Assembly: GCF_964213995.1 (NCBI RefSeq)
Contig: NC_135812.1
Span: 84,940,001-85,004,000 of the forward strand
From: Mustelus asterias
Lineage: Eukaryota
DNA: 64,000 nucleotides
Direction: 5' to 3'
The notes below the pieces were generated by a model that was given only the letters and a program-made list of their open reading frames with translations, made no database searches and was not told the origin of the DNA. A program made the translations under genes and the position numbers. Positions within the stretch are counted from its first letter, which is position 1; every line of letters starts with the position of its first letter. This document shows, one piece after another, positions 1,854 to 57,404 of the stretch.

Positions 1854-4324
1854 ATTCCAATATCCACAGGGCATGCGAGAGAGCTACGTCTTTGTGCCAT
1901 TTCTGCCTCCATAGCATTGCCAAAATGATTAATATTAAATAGTGAGCCCATCTGTGATTAATGAAAATTCAACAGTATGGTCATCAAAATTGGGTTTTTA
2001 TTGGTCCCCGCCCAATATGCACAACCACATATGTGTACTTCCAACAGGGTTAATGGGTAACATCAGAAATAGAAAGCATGGCTCTCCCCAGGGCCAGGGA
2101 AGGCTAAGTCCAACTCTTGCACAGTCAGAGTGTCTGAGACAGATGTACATCTTCCTGCCCACTAGATCCACTGGCAGAAGCTGGCAATGTTGTATTTTCT
2201 TTTTCCAGAATGACATGTTGAAATCAAACTGTTTTTAACCCAGTTTTACACATTTGAACAAACAGTATTCTTGACATCATTTGTTACAAACAATAATTTG
2301 TATTTAAATCAATTCATTTCTTCTTTAGATACAAAAAAACACATTTACTATTTCAATTGTTATGGTTCTGCCTATCAATTGAACTGAGTCTCTCTTTGTA
2401 CACAAATTGTCCATGTTATTTACCCTTGGCCAATCATGTTTATTTTTGCCAAGCAAATGTACTGACCTTTAACATATCCTGTTGACCACTTCTTTAGTCG
2501 TGGATATAAAACAATATAATTATCTGTACATACAATGAGGCACCCTTGTTATGTCTCATCGGAAATGTGAAACAGTGATTGCGAGGAATACACAACAGGC
2601 CAGTCAGCATCTGTAGAGAGAACAGACAAGCCAATGTTTGAGGTGCAGAGTTCTGGCTTTGTATTATGATTTACAGTGCCGTGTTAGCTTCATTGTATAT
2701 TTTACAGTTTCACATTCACTTTGATGTGTAATAGTCAAGCTAATTATTTTATTTCCTTCAATTTAATGTTGGACTTCTAAATCATAACCAGATATAGCCT
2801 TCATGACCTAATGTCTTTGTTTAAAGTTCAATTCCAGAAAGCCAATTTTCTTTTAATTTATCCTTATACTTTGTAGTGATAATTTATTGATTTTGCCACC
2901 AGTCAAGTCTCTTTAGCAATCTGACCATTGGATTGTTTTATAATGTAACAGATTTACATTGTGATGCTGTGATCTGTATCTATTGTAAGTGGAGTACAAG
3001 GAGAATTGCTTAATTTGAAAAAGATTGGCAAGATTCCAAGCTCAATACAAAGTGCTAGGGTGTAAGTCTATTAGTTCAAGGCAATGAAAAATGATCACTT
3101 TATAAATGTAAGTTTTCAATAGGGTTCTTGCCATACGCAAGTCAGATTTCATGGGGGAAAGACTCATTCACACAGTACCACTTTAATTGACGCTATGTAG
3201 ACTTACAGCAACTCCCCAGGGGAAGACAGCGCCATGGGCCACCAACTGCACAGCCTGCCTGAGTTTCCATACTGGTATCATTGTAGAACACTGCTCGGGG
3301 CACAGTCTGTTCCCAGGGAATCAATGCAAACATAAGAAATTGAAGACCATTCTGTCCCTGGAGTCTGCTTTTAACCATTTAATATGATCATGACTAAGCT
3401 CAATGTCAGAAACCTGGGCCATACCTGCACACATAGCCGGGAAATGTTATACTGATTAATACCTGCCCTAACTCAGTGATTAGCCAATGTAACTCAACCG
3501 AGCACCACAACCAACACCCCACGGTCACTAACCCTAACCTGACTCCCCCTGACCCAACTATCATCCCAACCGGGTCCAACTACTGCTGACCCAACAACGT
3601 TCCTGACCCAACCTGACTAGCCCCTTTTCCACTCACCTGACTACTCACTCATTCACCCATTCATTCTCTCACTGATCCACTGAAGGACTTCAGACCCTTT
3701 AAAACTTACCTGAATGTGGCAGGTAATGTCATGAAAAAGAGGCATGCCCTCTCTTCATTCAATTTTTCTTTTGCTTGTTGATTTAGATCTGGGCTCTAAT
3801 GATTTTCCAACTGCCCAATTACCATGGACTGGATTTTACAGATGCTGACATCCCTGCGCCCCTAGCTAAAAAGTCGGAGTGGCTGGGGCATCTGCCCATG
3901 ATCCCAACAGCTATCCCTTTGAGCAGCACCAATTGCTTTAAGCCGAGTCTTCACCACTTTCTCGGGAGGAAGTCCCACTTTGGAGAGTTGCCAGCCAATT
4001 GGATGGAAAGTAGCTCAGCAGCTCCCAGCAGCTGGGAACGATAGGCAAGATTGGGTCTACTGGCAGTCCCACCACGCTGAGGAGCCCAGGTAAGTCCGAA
4101 GTTGGAGGCCAGATTCAATGGCTATTAACTGACAACTTAAAGACTTCAAACCCACTGGCATGGGAGCGTAAAGTCCAGCCCCATGTCTCTAATAATAAAT
4201 TGCAATATTTTGCCTACTACTGATGTTAGGCTAACTGGCCTACGTTTCTTCATTTTCTCTTTTCCTCCATTGTTAAAAGCAGTAACGCATTTGGTACCTT
4301 CCAATCCTTTGGAAGAGAATGCGT

Positions 4325-5255
4325 TAGGTGATAATTTAGGAGGCATGGTTAATAAGTTTGCAGATGACACCAAGATTGGTGGCATAGTGGACAGTGAAGA
4401 AGGTTATCTAGCATTGCAACGGGACTTTGATTAATTGGGCCAGTGGGCTGATGAATGGCAGATGGAGTTTAATTTAATTAAATGCGAGGTAATGCATTTT
4501 GGTAGATCGAATTAACACAGGACTTACTCAGTTAATGGTAGGGCATTGGGGAGAGTTACAGAACTAAGATTTCTGGGGCTACAGGTTCATAGCTCTTTGA
4601 AAGTGGAGTCACAGGTGGACAGAGTGGTGAAGAAGGCATTCGGCATGCTTGGTTTCATTGGTCAGAACATTGAATATAGGAGTTGGGATGTCTTGTTGAA
4701 GTTGTACAAAACATTGGTAAGGCCACACTTGGAACACTGTGTACAGTTCTGATCACCCTATTATAGAAAGGATATTATTAAGCTAGAAAGAATGCAGAAA
4801 AGATTTACTGTGATGCTACGGGACTTGATGGTTTGAGTTATAAGGAGAGGCTGGGTAGACTGGGACTTTTTTCCCTGGAGTGTACGAGGCTTAGGGGTGA
4901 TCTTATAGAGGTCTATAAAATAATGAGGGGCATTGATAAAGTAGATAGTCAACATATTTCCCCAAAGGTAGGGGAGTCTAAAACTGGAGGGCATAGATTT
5001 AAGGTGAGGGGGGAGAGATACAAAAGGGTCCAGAGGGGCATTTTTTTCATACAGAGGGTGGTGAGTGTCTGGAACGAGCTGCCAGAAGTAGTAGTAGAGG
5101 TGGATACAATTTTGTCTTTTAAAAGGCATTTAGACAGTTACATGGGTAAGATGGGTAGAGAGGGATAATGGGCCAAACACAGGCAATTGGGACTAGCTTA
5201 ATGGTAAAAACTGGGCGGCATGGACAAGTTGGGCCGAAGGCCCTGTTTCCTTGCT
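4325..5255 (+). mobile_element. CR1/HER1-like LINE 3' fragment
   Basis: KFADDTKIGG...RPHLEHCVQF...RGDLIEVYKIM...QRVVSVWNELP. Confidence 0.9.
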
Positions 5256-7200: not shown

Positions 7201-8449
7201 ATCCAGTTATACTAACAGCCTGGTACAGCCATGCTCCCTCACAGTCTACAAGCCAATGTTCTCATATTTCCTGCTGCGTGATACAAACTCCTTTGAAGAC
7301 GCCAGCAGCCAAAATAGGAAAACTAAAGGAACCAGGAATAGTTTAATTTATTCTCCCCCACTTTACACGCACAAACAGCGCTAGATAGTAATATTTTTGC
7401 ACTGTAATTAGGTAGAAATACAAGCCAAATCTAAACTTACTTCAGTTTCACATTTGGAAGACAGTCGCCTGATACCAAAAGCACAATTGTAGCGCCACCA
7501 AGTATTTTCGTGTGATCACTCCATCCCACTGTGAAGCCAAACAGTAATCTGCTGCAGGCATCAGCTATTTATTTATGCAACCAACTCAGAGCACAATCAG
7601 ACAGACAGTTTAAAGTGCACGGGAAGCAGCGACTGAAGATTAGATCTTCTGGGAGGTAGTGGTGAGGTTGAATGAGATGATAAACAATTGCAAACAACAG
7701 AATCAACAGTGAACCAACACAGTGCAAAGGGGAGTGCCATGCCTTTTGGAACACCCTGCTGCAGTGATCAGAGGTGTTAGCCAAATGTCTGTGCTTTTAC
7801 TTGTTTGTGACTTTCGCTCCAGCAACAGCAGCTGCTGCTGGAGAGAACAGTGACATCATTCAGAAGGAGGGTGTATGCTGATTTCCCACAAGATGTCCAA
7901 CGCTGGAAAGAATCTCAAAACATCAGCAATAGCTCGAGATGCTTGAAACCAGTCCAAAGCTGGGAAATCAAACAGACTAGACTCGGAGAAAATGGCTGAT
8001 AATGCCGTGGTTCTCCGTGGACGGCAAGAAGAGTTCGTCAATCAGAATAGAGAGTCTGAGTCTTGATCTTCCAGGCAGCAAGGCTTTATTCGCTAATACA
8101 AGTCAACAAAGCCGGGATTTCCGGATGAATCCAAAGAATCAGCGCGCTTACAGTCATTTTTATACACTTTTTAGCCTCATACCTCATCATTCTTATCTCA
8201 CAGTCAAGGCTATTTTTGCAGACCCCAAGGCCACTTTTCGTTAGCCACCATGGTTTACTAGACCTACGTTATCTGCCTTCTTTCTGATTGGTCACCAATG
8301 AATATGCTATGATATCATTGTGGTTCCATCTTGCCTTCCTATCTGAAGTTTATTATCTAATCAGCCAAGGTTGTTGTTTGTTCAACCATTGTGGGGCATC
8401 CTGCTATGCCAAGACTTTTTTAAAAGATGTGTGTTTCTTAGGTTTTAAG

Positions 8450-8800
8450 AAATTACTTTCAGCTTCTCGGCCTTTTGGCTAAGATCAAGTGTAGTATGGT
8501 CGGCAGCCCATGGTCGGCCGCACTTGGTTGAGGTCATTGGGTTACACTGAAGCTTCATATGTTTCATATGAAGCAATTTTTTAAAGCAGCATCTCGGCCT
8601 TTTGGCTAAGATGCAAATGAGCTCAAGTCTTGGAGGAGGAACCTCCCCCTTCTCCAATCAGCTTGGCTCATGTAGATCAGGCCCAGGACAGGGTGGTTTG
8701 GTCGCTCGCCCTGTCTTGTCAGCCTGGATCGGAAATGTCTCAACTTGTTGAGACTCTGAATTGGATTTGATTTGATTGAATTGGAAAAGTATTTTTAAAA
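8450..8800 (+). mobile_element. U2-headed structured insertion (candidate U2-derived SINE or non-autonomous retroelement)
   Basis: Two U2 stem-I copies (8462, 8592), several hairpins and a GATTT-like repetitive 3' tail; interrupts a solo LTR. Confidence 0.6.
8462..8497 (+). ncRNA. U2 snRNA 5' fragment (about nt 4-39, stem I and branch-point recognition sequence GTAGTA); not a full U2 gene
   Basis: GCTTCTCGGCCTTTTGGCTAAGATCAAGTGTAGTAT matches the vertebrate U2 5' end as I recall it, then diverges. No Sm site or 3' domain. Confidence 0.9.
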
Positions 8801-9029
8801 ATTTATCTCTTACTTGTCCTAATAATTATTCCTTCCAATATATGTTATCTTAATGATTATTCCTTACAATAACAACAGACCTCTTAGTCCAAATTGAGAT
8901 AACTTAACCACATCCACGAGATTCAAGTTTTCTATACTGGGTACATCATTGGAGCATAGGATCCCTACAGTACCGAAGGAAGCCATTTGGCCCATTTAGT
9001 CTGCACTGACTCTCTGACAGAGCATCTTA

Positions 9030-21347: not shown

Positions 21348-22004
21348 GTGAGTATAACCCATTGGCCCTGGGGCAAGTAGAACTTCAACACAAAAAAAAA
21401 CTTGCTGTTCTTAATCAAAATCACCCTTTGACAGATTACTGCTTATTGCTATCGATCCAGAAACCCACAAGAAAGGAAATTATTATTAAGGCCATGTCAT
21501 CCCTGAGCACCATTATCTGAAATAACCTGTGCACCTTGGAGTTTACAAAACTTTTTAATTTGTTAACAATTTAAATAGACCTGTTCCTTATCTGTCTGTA
21601 AGTATTAACTACAAATTTTGCCTTCTTAGATATCAATGCTTATAATCTGAAACTTCTGTTATTTGTGAATTGGAAACCAGGCTGGATTGGATAAAAATCC
21701 AACTTGCATTCATGAAATGAGGAGAAGGAACTTTGTGGAAATATTGGCAGAAGAAGCATTTTAAAACCAATGCTCACATAACAAATATTGCTTGATTTCC
21801 TCCAGGTATTAAATTAATCGTTATCTTGTCCTTTTTGAAATTGCAGCTTCTTTACTTCAGAATAGCCACATGTGACAATATTAATTACTTTCTCTGACTC
21901 ATTTACACACCATATTGTTATAGGGACTGGGACTGAAAATGATGCCAACTTAAACCGCAGCTGCTTTTTTAAAAAAACCGGCTCCAACTTTCACCTTCTG
22001 AGGT

Positions 22005-22252
22005 GAATTCACCAAGCGTTGGATTGTCCACCCACTAATAGGGAATGTGAGCTGGGTTTAGACCGTCGTGAGACACGTTAGTTTTACCCCATTGATGATT
22101 ACAAAGTGTTGTTGCAATAGTAATCCTGCTCAGTACGAGAGGGACCGCAGGTTCGGACATTTGGTGTATGTGCTTGGCTGAGGAGCCAATGGTGCGAAGC
22201 TACCATCTGTGGGATTATGACTGAACGCCTCTAAATTAGAATCCCACCTAAA
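22005..22252 (+). pseudogene. 28S rRNA 3'-domain fragment including the sarcin-ricin loop, in FABP1-like intron 1
   Basis: GAATTCACCAAGCGTTGGATTG...GAGCTGGGTTTAGACCGTCGTGAGAC...CTCAGTACGAGAGG...GGATTATGACTGAACGCCTCTAA; flanked by TTCTGAGG at 21996-22003 and 22253-22260. Confidence 0.92.
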
Positions 22253-22401
22253 TTCTGAGGAATTATGAATCTTTTCAGTTCTTGGAGAAGATTTATTCTT
22301 TACATCACAGGTCCTTTCCAATATTTGCATCAATGCTAAATACTTCCACCTGCAAATTTTAAAGTGAAAGCCATAACTAGCACTGGCAGCGAAAATACAC
22401 T

Positions 22402-39480: not shown

Positions 39481-39628
39481 TGTACACAGAACAAAAAGAT
39501 CTGTCACTCCCCCCAACTCCCTGGCCCGCTGCACCCCCCCTCCCCACCTGAACATTGCCCCCCCCCCCCCACCCCCGATCACTGGCTTCCCTTGCCCATT
39601 GCTGGTCTGATACCTCCCCCACCCCATC

Positions 39629-39917
39629 CCGGATGATCGCTGCCCTGATACCAATCCTTCTCCCGGCTGCCCCACCCCCCCCCCACCGGATGATCGCTGC
39701 CCTGATACCAACCCCTCTCCCGGCTGCCCCACCCCCTTCCCCCCCACACCGGATGATCGCTGCCCTGATACCCACCCCTCTCCCGGCTGCCCCACCCCCC
39801 TCACCCCCCCACCGGATGATCGCTGCCCTGATACCAACCCCTCTCCCGGCTGCCCCACCCCCCTCCCCCCCCCCCACCGGATGATCGCTGCCCTGATACC
39901 AACCCCTCTCCCGGCTG
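39629..39917 (+). repeat. GC-rich minisatellite, 5 units of about 57-65 bp
   Basis: ccggatgatcgctgccctgataccaacccctctcccggctgcccca(c)n repeated. Confidence 0.92.
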
Positions 39918-41231
39918 ATTGCTGCTCCGATACCCACCTGCCAATTGCTGCCCAGCCGAACTACGATTCCAGGCTCTGCAGCTCCCAACACCCCCCCCCT
40001 CCTCCCCCCCTCCCCCCACCCCACCAGCCTCACCTTAGCCTCGCCCACGACTGGCCCCACCTGCTCCCTTGGCCCTGCTCCTCAGCACTGACCAGTGCCT
40101 GGTGGGCACTGCGAGGGCGCCAGGCTGGAACTGTCAGGGTACCAGGCTAGCACTGGCAGCGTACCAGCCTGGCACTGCCAGGGTCCCAAGGAGCACTGTC
40201 CCTCCTGCCCCCGACCATCCAGGGGGCCACAATGGCCTCTGGTCCCACCGGCAAGGCCATCACATCGGGTCCCTATTGTTGGGTGACCATACATGATCCT
40301 CGCCAGTAAGGACCTCCAACGGCTAGGCCACCAAGGCAAGTGAACCCAGACGATAGGGACTCACGCTCATGATGATATATTTAAGTAAGAATTTAACCCA
40401 TCCCAGGCGCAATGCTGATTTCACTGGTTTCAGAGTGTCGGTAAGATCGTGAAAGGCGAGAAACCGGGCGCAAAGTTGTTTTTTTTGCCTCGCTAGCGCT
40501 CTGACCGGCTCACAACACCGGTCAACCGATGGACGAGCCGGTAAGATCGGCCCCCTTCACAGAGTGGGCAATAATCCATCTAACAAAAGTTTTGAGAAAC
40601 ATGTGCCTGCCCAATTCTGCAATGATCGAGCCTCTGTCACACAGTCCCTCTTCATACTTATTTAGTTTAAATAAATCATTGGACAATTATTGACAAAGAA
40701 GGGCTATCACCTAGTCACCATTTTCTATTGTCCATATTTGACTTGACAAAATCTTGGATTTGTGGACTGCTTTCCTGGAATCAGATAGTTCAGCAGGACT
40801 GAAAGGGCAAAGATGGAGTATAGATGTATATAGATGTATATGGGTGTATATTATTCCAGAAGATTGTATTCAGAGATTAAATCTATGGAGAAAGAGTACT
40901 TTTGAGCAAAATATTTTAGAATTTGCTTTCTGAGTGTTCTAAGTTCCAATCGAATTCCTGTATTCTGACCTCCACTCCTCCAGTGTAAATTATAGAACCA
41001 ATAGTGCATTCAACATTAACATTGAAGAGGATTTATTGCCTCATTTCGGAATTAGAGCAGCTTTGCTGCAGGCCCACTTTTTTGCCAAGATTGGAACTAT
41101 TTGATCTGTGCCCCAGCTGCTTAAGCTTTATACATCTCTTGATATCTGGATTCACATGTACCATCTAGCACTTCAGCTAACTGCTATCATTCTGGTCAAA
41201 TAGAACAAACCCCAACCCGGGCCTACGTTAT

Positions 41232-42120
41232 GGGCAGCATTTTGCACTCTGTGGCTGAGCCGAGAAAACCGGCGTGCAGCTTTCCAGCTGCACAGCCGAG
41301 ATTTCTCTCCAGATTCTACGGCACTCTTTTCACAGATAATCTGGAAGTGTGGTTTTTGCCATCATGCTGGTGGGGTGGGTAGAGCCAGCAAAACCGGCTC
41401 CATAGAGATTGGGGAGCTGTTTTTAAAGAGCGCCCCAAGGTGCACTGTAAAGAATATTCCAACCCCTCCCCCCACCAAAGTTAAGGGGAACAACCCCCAC
41501 AAGCAGCAGAGCAACCCCTGTGCCTCATTGAAATGGTGACCCTCCTCGCAAGCACTGGAGTAACTGCACCTCGCTCCACGGATAAGGGGAACCACCCCCA
41601 TGAAGCTCCCCAGAGGGCCCACTGCTGGCACTGTCCCCTGGCAGGTAGACACTGCGAGGTTGGCATGGCCAGGTTGGCATAGACAGGTTGAAAGTGCCTT
41701 GCTGGCACTGCCAGGGTAGTACTGCCAGTGTGGCACTGCCAAAGTGGCACTGCCAGGGTGGCACTGCTAGGGTGGCACTGCCAGGGTGGCACTGCCAGAG
41801 CACTGCCGGGGCATTTCCCTCTCCCCCGGGGTCTATGCTTACTTTTATGCCCCTGGCAGGTTTCCCTCAACTGTTTGACATTTCGCAAAAGCAGCTGCAA
41901 ACTTCAATGTGACGTCACATTGATGAAGAGGGAATTCTTAACGTAGAGGGAACATATGGCAGAGAAGTCCGATAATTATCTTTAAATGAGGTTCCCTCCC
42001 TTTCTGAAAACCAGAAAATGAGATCTTTCTGGCCAGAATCTTGTTTTCCAATTCTTGCAAAATTTTATGCCCACATCTCCATTTGTGCTCAGAGCTAACA
42101 TGGGCACAAAATCATCCCCT
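41232..42120. mobile_element. Non-autonomous DNA transposon-like element with internal TGGCACTGCCA tandem array
   Basis: Imperfect TIR gggcagcattttg / caaaatcatcccc; related sequence at 37150-37400, 39480-40555 and 55640-56230. Confidence 0.5.
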
Positions 42121-54488: not shown

Positions 54489-56000
54489 CTGCTGAGCATG
54501 TCCAGCATTTTCTGTTTTTATTTCAGATTTCCAGCATCCACAGTATTTCCCTTCAATGTGATTATTGCCCTGTCCACACGATCCCATTCACCTTAACTTA
54601 ATTCCTCATACTAAGCGGTCTGTTCTAAATTCATAATTTTCATCAGACTAAACAAATGTTTTTTTTCAGACAAGTGGTTTTAATGCTGCAATAATCACAA
54701 ATATTCACAGAAATTAGATCTTCAGAATCTATGGCAAGACAAACAATGGCATGTGAATGCAACTTGACTATTTCTACGCACAACTGTCTCGCTTAGTCTA
54801 CCCAATGCAAGCATGCTGCCATCCAAAGCTCTGCTGCCCGTGTCCTTACTTGCCCCAAGTCCTGTTCACCCCTGTGCTAGATGACCTACATTGGCTGCTG
54901 GTTAAGCATTATTATTTTTTAAATTCTCACCATTGTTTTCAAATTCTTCCATTGCCTTTCCCCTTCCAGAATTCTGTAATCTCCTCCAACCCTACCAGCC
55001 TCCAAGATATCTGCATTCTTCTCATTTGGGCCTCTTAGGCATTCCTGATTTAATCCGTCCACCACAAGTGGTTGTGCAATCAGCTGGCTGGTCCCTGACA
55101 GTTTTTTTTAAAGTTTCTTTATTAGTAAGGCTTACATTAATGCTGCAATGAAGTTACTGTGAAATTCCCCTAGTCGCCACACTCTGGCGCCTTTGGGGTC
55201 AATGCACCTAACCAGCATGTCTTTCAGACTGTGGGAGGAAACCAGAGCACTCCGAGGAAACCCACGCAGACACGGGGAGAACGTGCAGACCTCACACAGA
55301 CAGTGACCCAAGCCGGGAATCAAACCCAGGTCCCTGGCGCTGTGAGGCAGCAGTGCTAACCACTGTGCCGCTGTGTCGCCCTGGAATTCCTTCCATTAAC
55401 CTCTCCACCCTATTAGCTCTGATTCCTGCTCCAAGATGCTCCTTAAAACCTACTTCTTTGACCAAATTTTTGATCATCTGCCCTAATATCTCCTTATGTG
55501 CCTCATGTCAAGCTTTGTCTTTTATGAAATGTCTAGGGACGTTCTATTATGTTAAAGGTACAGTATAAATCTCAGCTGTTACATGAGAAATGAGCAATGG
55601 TAATGGCAATGTTATATGGTTTGTATATAATGCTAATTCAGTGGGCGGACACAATCTGCGAGATCATCAGCGGGGGCTCAAGATCTGGCGAAACATGGAA
55701 ATCGTGAACCTCACCACCGAGATCACGACCTCTAATTTTTGCCACCCCTCGTGTTAACCTGATTTTAATACATTTTAATAAATTTAAATGTAATCAAAAA
55801 CCCCCACCGCCAGATTCTCCCCCCCACAAGATTTTTATACCTCGCCGCCATGATCACAACAGGTTCACCCAGACGTGAACCTGTTGAGGGGATCCCTCAA
55901 GGGGTGCAAAGGCCTGTATAGCCCCTGGAGGGGAGGGACATGGCCAGACACTGCCCTCGCAATGCCCCCAGCACTGCCCTGGCACAATTTGGCACTTTCA

Positions 56001-56071
56001 GTTGGCACTGTCAAGTTGGCACTGCCAGGTTGGCACTGCCAGGTTGGCACTGCCAGGTTGGCACTGCCAGG
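56001..56071. repeat. 14-bp tandem repeat GTTGGCACTGCCAG x5
   Basis: Read directly; a similar array lies at 41700-41810. Confidence 0.9.
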
Positions 56072-57404
56072 TGGGCGCACTGATCTCTGTGGAGTCTGTT
56101 CCCAGCTCTAAGAGCCCCTGCTCTGCTAGCGTGATGACGCAAACCATGCCCACTCTTTTTTTTGCAGTTAAAGGAAGAAGATCCAGAGAGAAAACTGTCC
56201 AGTGGAGCTGGCGACTTCCACACCAGTTTTCTCAGCAGAGCTGACACTTTGCTAAATACTCGTTTTATGTTTATCTTGCATAAAGAGAATACAGCAGTAT
56301 CACAATACGAGAACATTGTCACACAACAAGGGAGTGCAATAATTCAGCATTTCTGAAGCAATGGAAAGTCAGCAGAAACTATGGACGCCATTTTCCAGCC
56401 CTGCCCGCCACTGGGATCATCCAGTCTTTTGGCTGGGCTACTGAATCTCCAGCAGCGAGCGGGTCCCACTGCAACAGGGCCGGAAAATCCCAGCCTGTGT
56501 CATAAAATTTATGAGACTGTGTAAAAAGTGGGAAAGTAGAGACAATGCTGAAATCAAGTGGCAGGACTATGGAAGTGATGTTGCATGATATTACATCGCA
56601 GAGGTGGCCAACTTGATTTTTCACTCCTGCCAAGACCGGGATAGGAGGAAACTTGCAGGGAAAATCCTGCACCCTGTAACACTGTTTTGATATTAAAAAG
56701 ATAATGGGAAGCTTATGAAGAGCTTGAGGTTGACTTCAGGAAACAACATTTATATTCTGATGGTCACAATTCAGACCATTGAAACCCGAATAGCTTATTG
56801 AAGCCACTTATGTTATGTTGCATGTTATATATGGCGTTAATACTTTAAAAAGTGAAAGTTAAATTCCACCACATGGCTCAGTGGGAAGGGCGATTCCTGC
56901 CCCATGCAAACCAGGAAGATCCCAAGTTCAATCTCACATCTGTGAGAATACACCCCAGTGTTATTTTTCACGATGACATTCACTAGCTAATGCCAAACAT
57001 TAGAAACAGAATAAAGTTCCTTCAGTCACACCTCCACAGTGTTTGTATTTGAAAGAAGAGCCGTAATTTAGCCTAATGCAATGTTTAGGGTTGGCATTTA
57101 TCCAGCTCAATAGCTTATATATCACATCACGGGTAGTCAGCCTGAAAAGAAAGGTACCAAAATCAAGACCAATCCTGATGTGATAAAAACCTTCTTCATC
57201 ACTGTTGGCTGTAAGGACCCTATTTGAAATTATTCTGAGCAGTTTCATCTAGATGCAGAAGATTGCACTCTTCTGCAGATAAAGCAACACTGTTGAGATT
57301 GGGCAGAGAGTCCTTTACTCTGCCTCAGTCTTGTGCTACATTTGATCATGACCAACTGGTTTCACAATTGGAACTTGCTCTATCCCCAGAACTGACATAA
57401 ATCA

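Follow-up and report, generated by a model that had tools for sequence, protein, structure and literature searches.

A U2-headed retroposon family in Mustelus asterias and its probable mobilisation by a resident Keno-type LINE

A retroposon copy within a solo LTR-like repeat

The window analysed here, a stretch of 64,000 nucleotides from Mustelus asterias (contig NC_135812.1, positions 84,940,001 to 85,004,000, forward strand), carries at 8462..8801 on the + strand a whole retroposon copy of 340 bp. Its ends are common to dispersed copies 97-99% identical to it, its 5' end lies 3 nt short of U2 +1, and it differs at three positions from the majority of 60 young copies of its subfamily, the youngest one. 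The copy begins with a first U2 head (8462..8497), identical over 36 nt to U2 nt 4-39 of the genome's own U2 gene and ending at the Keno/Utopia insertion position. Next comes a subfamily-specific variable loop, recognised in alignments, which forms a small hairpin in the youngest subfamily (8498..8519), and an antisense "mask" strand predicted from folds to pair with U2 nt 11-34 (8520..8543; helix 1). Read on its opposite strand, the mask resembles the U2 target site. A perfect hairpin with 10-bp arms and a 3-nt loop (8552..8574), evident both in the sequence and in the folds, has only 5 bp in the oldest groups of the family and is longer in younger ones. The second U2 piece (8589..8614; helix 2) covers U2 nt 4-27 with one change (23/24 counted from 8589, with 21 nt exact at 8592-8612, U2 nt 7-27); it forms an extended hairpin closed by 6-bp arms and does not include the branch-point recognition sequence. 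Two long hairpins are then predicted, one with a variable apical loop (8617..8671; helices 3-4) and one that holds the sole two-sided pair change of the family (8675..8730; helices 5-6). The 3' hairpin (8737..8754), nearly invariant across the family, has 8 complementary bases per arm and folds as 7 bp with a 4-nt loop. Pentamer-like repeats followed by a short T/A tail (8758..8801) complete the copy; they resemble the last 20 nt of a LINE described below, the best match being weak (E about 0.09). An earlier note on this DNA, made from the sequence alone, had described the 36-nt U2 match, the second U2 piece in its longer hairpin and the two perfect hairpins, and all of its coordinates check.

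The copy is not a U2 gene or variant: the Rfam U2 model matches the window block at 44.5 bits (E 2.3e-7), below the 46-bit cut-off and nearly all from the head, against 178-190 bits for true U2 genes of this genome. In the same scan U2 stem II, the 3' domain and the rest of U2 were absent, and among known Rfam families nothing other than U2, ribozymes included, was found in the body at E<=10, which leaves the self-cleavage raised in the earlier note without a candidate. The predicted fold of the block is very stable (-146.5 kcal/mol against -102.2 +/- 5.4 for 100 shuffles, z -8.2), and none of the 100 shuffles was as good.

The host is a solo LTR-like repeat. Its left part (8003..8461) starts with TG and is preceded by a 4-bp duplication at 7999-8002; its right remnant (8803..8868), which follows a deletion of about 170 bp, ends in CA and is bordered by the same duplication at 8869-8872. 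A search for this repeat gave 326 candidates, of which the 40 scored reached 92-100%, and several are paired 7-14 kb apart. All nine other host copies examined lack the block at the corresponding site, so the proposal that it arrived by insertion into the LTR stands. The insertion was not clean, however: about 166-170 bp of the host are missing at the joint (measured against two host copies), a 6-nt microhomology forms the 5' joint, and the window copy has no target site duplication (TSD), the empty sites in host copies showing a deletion instead. The same comparison marks a 6-nt TSD candidate as chance.

Elsewhere in the window, two adjacent 28S rRNA fragments at 21985-22261 (+), corresponding to positions 2885-2984 and 3008-3160 of the Rfam LSU model and with a T/A run just upstream, are probably a retroposed rRNA piece. 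Short tandem arrays lie at 41633-41826, 55975-56098 and 39613-39936, with periods of 14 bp (7-bp subunit) and about 63 bp.

A dispersed family with nested subfamilies

The window block is almost certainly one recent copy of a dispersed U2-headed retroposon family of some 6,000 members. A 28-mer starting at the 3' hairpin has 4,598 exact matches in the genome and 5,973 with two mismatches; its reversed control has none. A 30-mer from the head has 2,231 matches, true U2 genes among them, and a motif spanning the variable loop of the youngest subfamily has 527 exact matches. A DNA search with the block gave 2,265 candidates, and the 40 best-scored places, on many contigs, were all 97-100% identical over about 340 nt. 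The 60 young copies studied, the first of the 527 motif matches, have a median divergence of 1.6% from their majority. Thirty-eight of them start at U2 nt 1-5 (the motif lies near the 5' end, so that this sample favours full-length copies), the commonest start being U2 +1 (18/60). TSDs of 7-20 bp (median 14) flank 45 of the 86 copies having a 3' end; the other 41 show none under the rule applied, or are stacked on an older tail and were not counted. The A tail is short. Most copies are dispersed and promoterless, and few lie within U2 genes. Copy number, shared ends and the TSDs of sister copies thus bear out the suggestion that this is a mobile element, non-autonomous and with two pieces of the U2 5' end.

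From 83 copies collected, 73 near-full-length ones were aligned and 70 were sorted by eye into eight groups, 300-332 nt long and differing mainly in their loops. At one locus (L063:3603-4151) the first half of the element occurs three times in tandem ahead of one full 3' half, a reiteration of the monomer via the second U2 piece. The last 30 nt of the element match, at about 90%, a pentamer-type satellite beside a U2 array on contig C21 (L109, L110, L113). The 3' end may derive from that satellite; chance similarity between simple repeats is the alternative.

Fold, sequence variation and A>G changes

The majorities of all eight groups fold stably (z -5.2 to -9.8) with U2 nt 25-34 always paired, which predicts that the head is sequestered by the internal antisense strand throughout the family; in the youngest group U2 nt 35-38 are predicted to be open. 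Across the eight groups, 29 of 177 paired columns vary against 53 of 119 unpaired ones. In an alignment of 30 copies, 98.3% of the cells in helical positions can pair, but only one of 72 pairs changes on both sides, and 428 of 500 shuffles do as well; a separate count found one two-sided change in 85 pairs. The structure is therefore conserved but unproven by covariation, and the covariation test put forward in the earlier note gave a weak result that cannot serve as proof of structure.

The earlier note had also considered a U2-mimic RNA. On that reading the family would be the pseudogenes of a host-functional mimic or decoy that modulates splicing, and both the very stable fold of every group and the lower variation of stems than of loops would agree with it. 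However, the conservation of stems is equally expected under selection on a mobile RNA, the subfamilies turn over rapidly, the U2 parts beyond the 5' pieces are missing, and the predicted fold buries the head against the antisense strand, so that the mimic reading finds no support; we give it almost no credence.

Substitutions in the copies lend the fold some backing apart from covariation. A>G changes are in excess on the sense strand, 111 on 65 A sites against 55 T>C on 90 T sites, which is a threefold excess per site; 40 of the 65 A sites are hit and 23 of the 90 T sites. When recurrent sites and two chimeric copies are dropped, A>G still outnumbers T>C (46 against 21, p 9e-6), and G>A and C>T are balanced. 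Four single copies hold clusters of 14, 11, 7 and 6 A>G changes, and A preceded by G is hit least. In 22 LINE segments used as control there is no bias (A>G 26, T>C 32), which lends no support to a general error bias of the reverse transcriptase as the cause. An excess that is absent from the LINE points to editing of the RNA before insertion, and ADAR-type editing before reverse transcription is the probable explanation. Against editing, A predicted to be unpaired took more changes per site (37 on 23 sites) than A in predicted pairs (32 on 42 sites). One older copy (L062, - strand, 4414-4742) shows dense A>G along most of its length.

These data also bear on how the head is acquired. Template switching from a headless RNA onto U2 snRNA could supply it afresh with every insertion, which would make the copies independent chimeras. 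U1 and U2 were added recurrently at the 5' end in SINEU (Kojima, 2015; PMC4494074), and one LINE copy here (L204) has a short U2 piece on its truncated 5' end. However, the joint between head and body is constant within each subfamily alignment, every one of the eight groups has in its body a complement of the head, and in edited copies the A>G changes extend into the head, so that a single folded RNA probably comprised both. Repeated template switching is accordingly a very unlikely origin, and a head inherited with the body is preferred.

U2 gene arrays and their resident LINE

The true U2 genes form tandem arrays on contig C24 (type A), and a second gene type on C21 (type B) is identical to type A at 168 of 191 positions, in a 448-bp unit. 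The two types (L111-L114 against L031-L050) have unrelated upstream regions, and their array units measure 448 bp and 1,833 bp. An 8,035-bp unit on C24 contains a LINE with two ORFs; its 3' end runs into U2 from nt 38 and its 5' end bears U2 nt 5-35. The same LINE has densely colonised the type-B array on C21, and in both arrays its 3' ends are flanked by U2 nt 38 onward. ORF1 encodes a ZCCHC3-type RNA-binding domain and CCHC domains, and ORF2 APE, RT and zf-RVT domains. The genome holds 602 exact 3' ends of this LINE. Open frames of 1,138-1,150 aa hold 8 of 137 matches. Among 10 copies examined, a 1,144-aa ORF2 with all catalytic motifs, endonuclease and YMDD included, is present in four and the whole 470-aa ORF1 in one; none of the 10 has both ORFs whole.

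The U2 site is given for both Keno, with an APE endonuclease, and Utopia, with an RLE endonuclease (PMC4640811). Since the resident LINE combines the U2 site with an APE domain, it is taken to be a Keno-type Tx1 element, an assignment made by site and domains. The earlier note had linked the block to Keno and Utopia alike. The Keno half of the link is upheld by a shared site and by stacking of the elements, described below; Utopia was not found as a partner, the U2-site LINE being of the APE type.

Three further features of the arrays may be mentioned. In the 8,035-bp unit (L051), a broken LINE with another SINE inside ORF2 has been amplified within the tandem U2 unit at least 14 times. In some array U2 genes (L055:2625-2831 and 4474-4680), short tandem duplications of the stretch around nt 18-37 replace the normal sequence; they may be scars left by endonuclease cuts. 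LINE 5' ends at L054:3630-3720 and L208:1640-1735 are preceded by similar upstream DNA, which at L054 is followed by an apparent U1 5' end.

Shared insertion sites of the family and the LINE

The family is very likely mobilised by the resident Keno-type LINE. Both occupy U2 genes at the same site, nt 37/38, and seven 3' ends of the SINE run straight into U2 nt 38+, with none in the control. Twelve of the 60 young copies have a family copy, a U2 head or a LINE piece within 70 nt (chance about 2e-4). Conversely, a SINE or U2 head adjoins 7 of 29 distinct LINE 3'-end loci read by eye, and the SINE abuts 6 of 10 LINEs chosen solely by ORF length, two of the six looking like duplicates. At two loci (L057 and L068) SINE and LINE come in alternation around a single TSD that is repeated. 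Three of the 60 young copies, and a fourth seen from one side, lie in antisense orientation inside an older copy's mask strand.

The dispersed insertions tell the same story at the level of the nick. The mean match of 42 nick sites to the U2 site exceeded that of matched background in all 5,000 resamplings, with the U2 base enriched at -6 (24 sites), -3 (19), -2 (19), +5 (18) and +6 (19), and a pyrimidine at -1 in 40 of the 42. L1-type TT/AAAA targeting is rejected, TT before the nick being at background level (4/42). Judged by these sequences, the dispersed targets are relaxed U2 sites rather than L1 sites.

The body of the element does not come from the LINE. Sensitive BLASTN of one against the other found the U2 piece and the weak tail match, and no other significant similarity. 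An internally deleted LINE (SIDE) is thereby rejected, as the 5' and 3' parts are not LINE-derived. The weakness of the tail likeness, together with the majority of copies lying outside U2 genes, would favour another L1- or Tx1-type LINE of the same genome as the source of the machinery, the Keno-type family being the only one surveyed. The exact use of the U2 site, the nicks shared with the Keno-type LINE and a target consensus that is U2-like and not L1-like make such a source highly improbable, and the Keno-type LINE is retained as the partner.

Transcription of the family

Transcription by polymerase III is unlikely, by the argument applied to SINEU (PMC4494074): the element lacks a B box and its body contains T runs of 4, 6 and 4. 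The second U2 piece contains the single A-box-like match. A classical polymerase III SINE can thus be set aside.

Transcription from U2 promoters, in turn, seems reasonably likely from the genomic context, since members sit at +1 of two U2 gene types and U2-array DNA is found inside the TSDs of three dispersed copies. In the C24 array, an internally deleted copy (L057) starts at +1 after type-A upstream DNA; in the C21 array, another (L076/L112) occupies +1 after type-B upstream DNA. Five further copies, no two with the same loop, lie behind type-B upstream DNA on C1, C6, C8 and C14. TSDs of 16, 18 and 10 bp (at the C6, C14 and C1 loci, respectively) enclose U2-array DNA together with the SINE, indicating that array transcripts containing the SINE served as templates. 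These 5'-extended copies show read-through from further upstream and not initiation at that promoter; initiation at U2 +1 we infer from the 5' ends of ordinary copies.

Several observations weigh on the other side. A transcript of an occupied U2 gene is expected to continue through U2 nt 38-191, a flank kept in only seven copies. The array-resident copies could be passengers: the type-A one is internally deleted, and L076 matches its nearest dispersed copies at 97% rather than 99-100%. Exact-motif searches found no promoter-linked source gene for the youngest subfamily; they also missed L076, which has one mutation. In line with these points, the family might be a SINE of the same LINE whose RNA is read through from upstream LINE or host promoters and then processed to U2 +1, its U2-gene copies being mere passengers at the site that the LINE prefers, and the 5'-extended copies, with spacer and upstream U2 sequence, prove that read-through RNAs were templates. 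The prevalence of starts at U2 +1 and the lack of a match to any ribozyme family speak against such processing, and five loop variants behind the same type-B upstream DNA are expected if successive subfamilies lived there. Read-through with processing is on balance unlikely, and transcription from U2 genes remains the preferred reading.

A proposed cycle

The following cycle would connect these observations. U2 genes are occupied at nt 37/38, as the DNA shows, so that the first bases of the gene act as the head. RNA polymerase II would transcribe the occupied gene into an RNA starting at U2 +1, in which the head is predicted to pair with the internal antisense strand and so to hide most of the bases that pair with U6 and the branch point. 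ADAR-type editing would turn some A into I in the folded RNA, as the changes in the DNA suggest. ORF2 of the LINE would nick U2-like sites with relaxed specificity and reverse-transcribe the RNA in place, and the few copies landing in U2 genes again would become new sources. As a whole, the account of a recent copy of a family of about 6,000 U2-headed members, with transcription from U2 genes and copying by the Keno-type LINE both likely, appears to us fairly probable.

A bolder version, which we offer tentatively and hold to be somewhat doubtful, is that the element is a self-renewing parasite of snRNA genes. It would home into U2 genes for their polymerase II promoter and fold its head away, sparing splicing; ADAR editing would supply subfamily variants, and the mask strand would be a decoy target for the endonuclease of the partner.

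Comparable elements and significance

The closest described counterparts are the crocodilian SINEU-1, -2 and -3, which are partnered with Tx1-Mar and whose mode of transcription was left as an open question (Kojima, 2015; PMC4494074). Like SINEU as described there, the Mustelus element is a short non-coding retroposon (here 300-332 bp and dispersed, thus under 500 bp) with a U2-derived head (36 nt exact), repeated U2 pieces, an A tail and TSDs. It further shares oligo-T runs incompatible with polymerase III, insertions in tandem around a single TSD, and a Tx1-clade partner LINE that itself bears a U head and uses the same targets. The likeness is judged from the published description. SINEU is reported there only from crocodilians and prefers Mariner-N4_AMi, whereas the Mustelus element prefers U2-like sites and is set apart by its copies at +1 of U2 genes, its predicted masked head and its A>G marks. 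The partner LINE is similar to Keno in having APE and RT, two ORFs and insertion at U2 nt 38/39, the Keno/Utopia site (PMC4494074; PMC4640811), but its 602 3' ends show that it inserts widely outside U2 too; the element itself is no deleted LINE. The R2 and R2/R1 SIDEs of Drosophila rDNA are also non-autonomous residents of the multicopy host gene of a LINE and use its transcription (PMC3414825), the latter part being conjectural in Mustelus. However, the SIDEs are internally deleted LINEs with a 5' ribozyme, described at rDNA sites (PMC3414825). In the Mustelus element the body is not of LINE origin, no ribozyme was detected, the head consists of host-gene bases, and copies are spread genome-wide. 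U2 retropseudogenes and U-snRNA/LINE chimeras likewise have a U2 5' fragment in front of a retrocopy, but are described as one-off events (PMC4494074), in contrast to the Mustelus family, whose body is fixed and whose subfamilies are nested. For cartilaginous fish, a search of the open literature, which left Repbase, Dfam, subscription journals and supplements aside, found no paper on a U2-headed SINE; two papers in that literature carry SINEU family names, and the main text of a paper on elephant-shark SINEs (PMC5499810) does not contain "snRNA", "Tx1" or "Keno".

The element is a real, young, U2-headed retroposon. With it, the class of snRNA-headed SINEs would extend beyond crocodilians, probably by independent origin, and would gain a link to a LINE that targets U2 and has copies with an open ORF2. 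The named U2-gene loci allow homing into U2 genes to be tested as an answer to the question on transcription raised by Kojima (2015). If the editing reading is true, the strand-specific A>G excess preserves in the genome the editing that a mobile RNA underwent. An endonuclease with relaxed specificity for the U2 site and a 330-nt passenger is also relevant to insertion tools based on retrotransposons.
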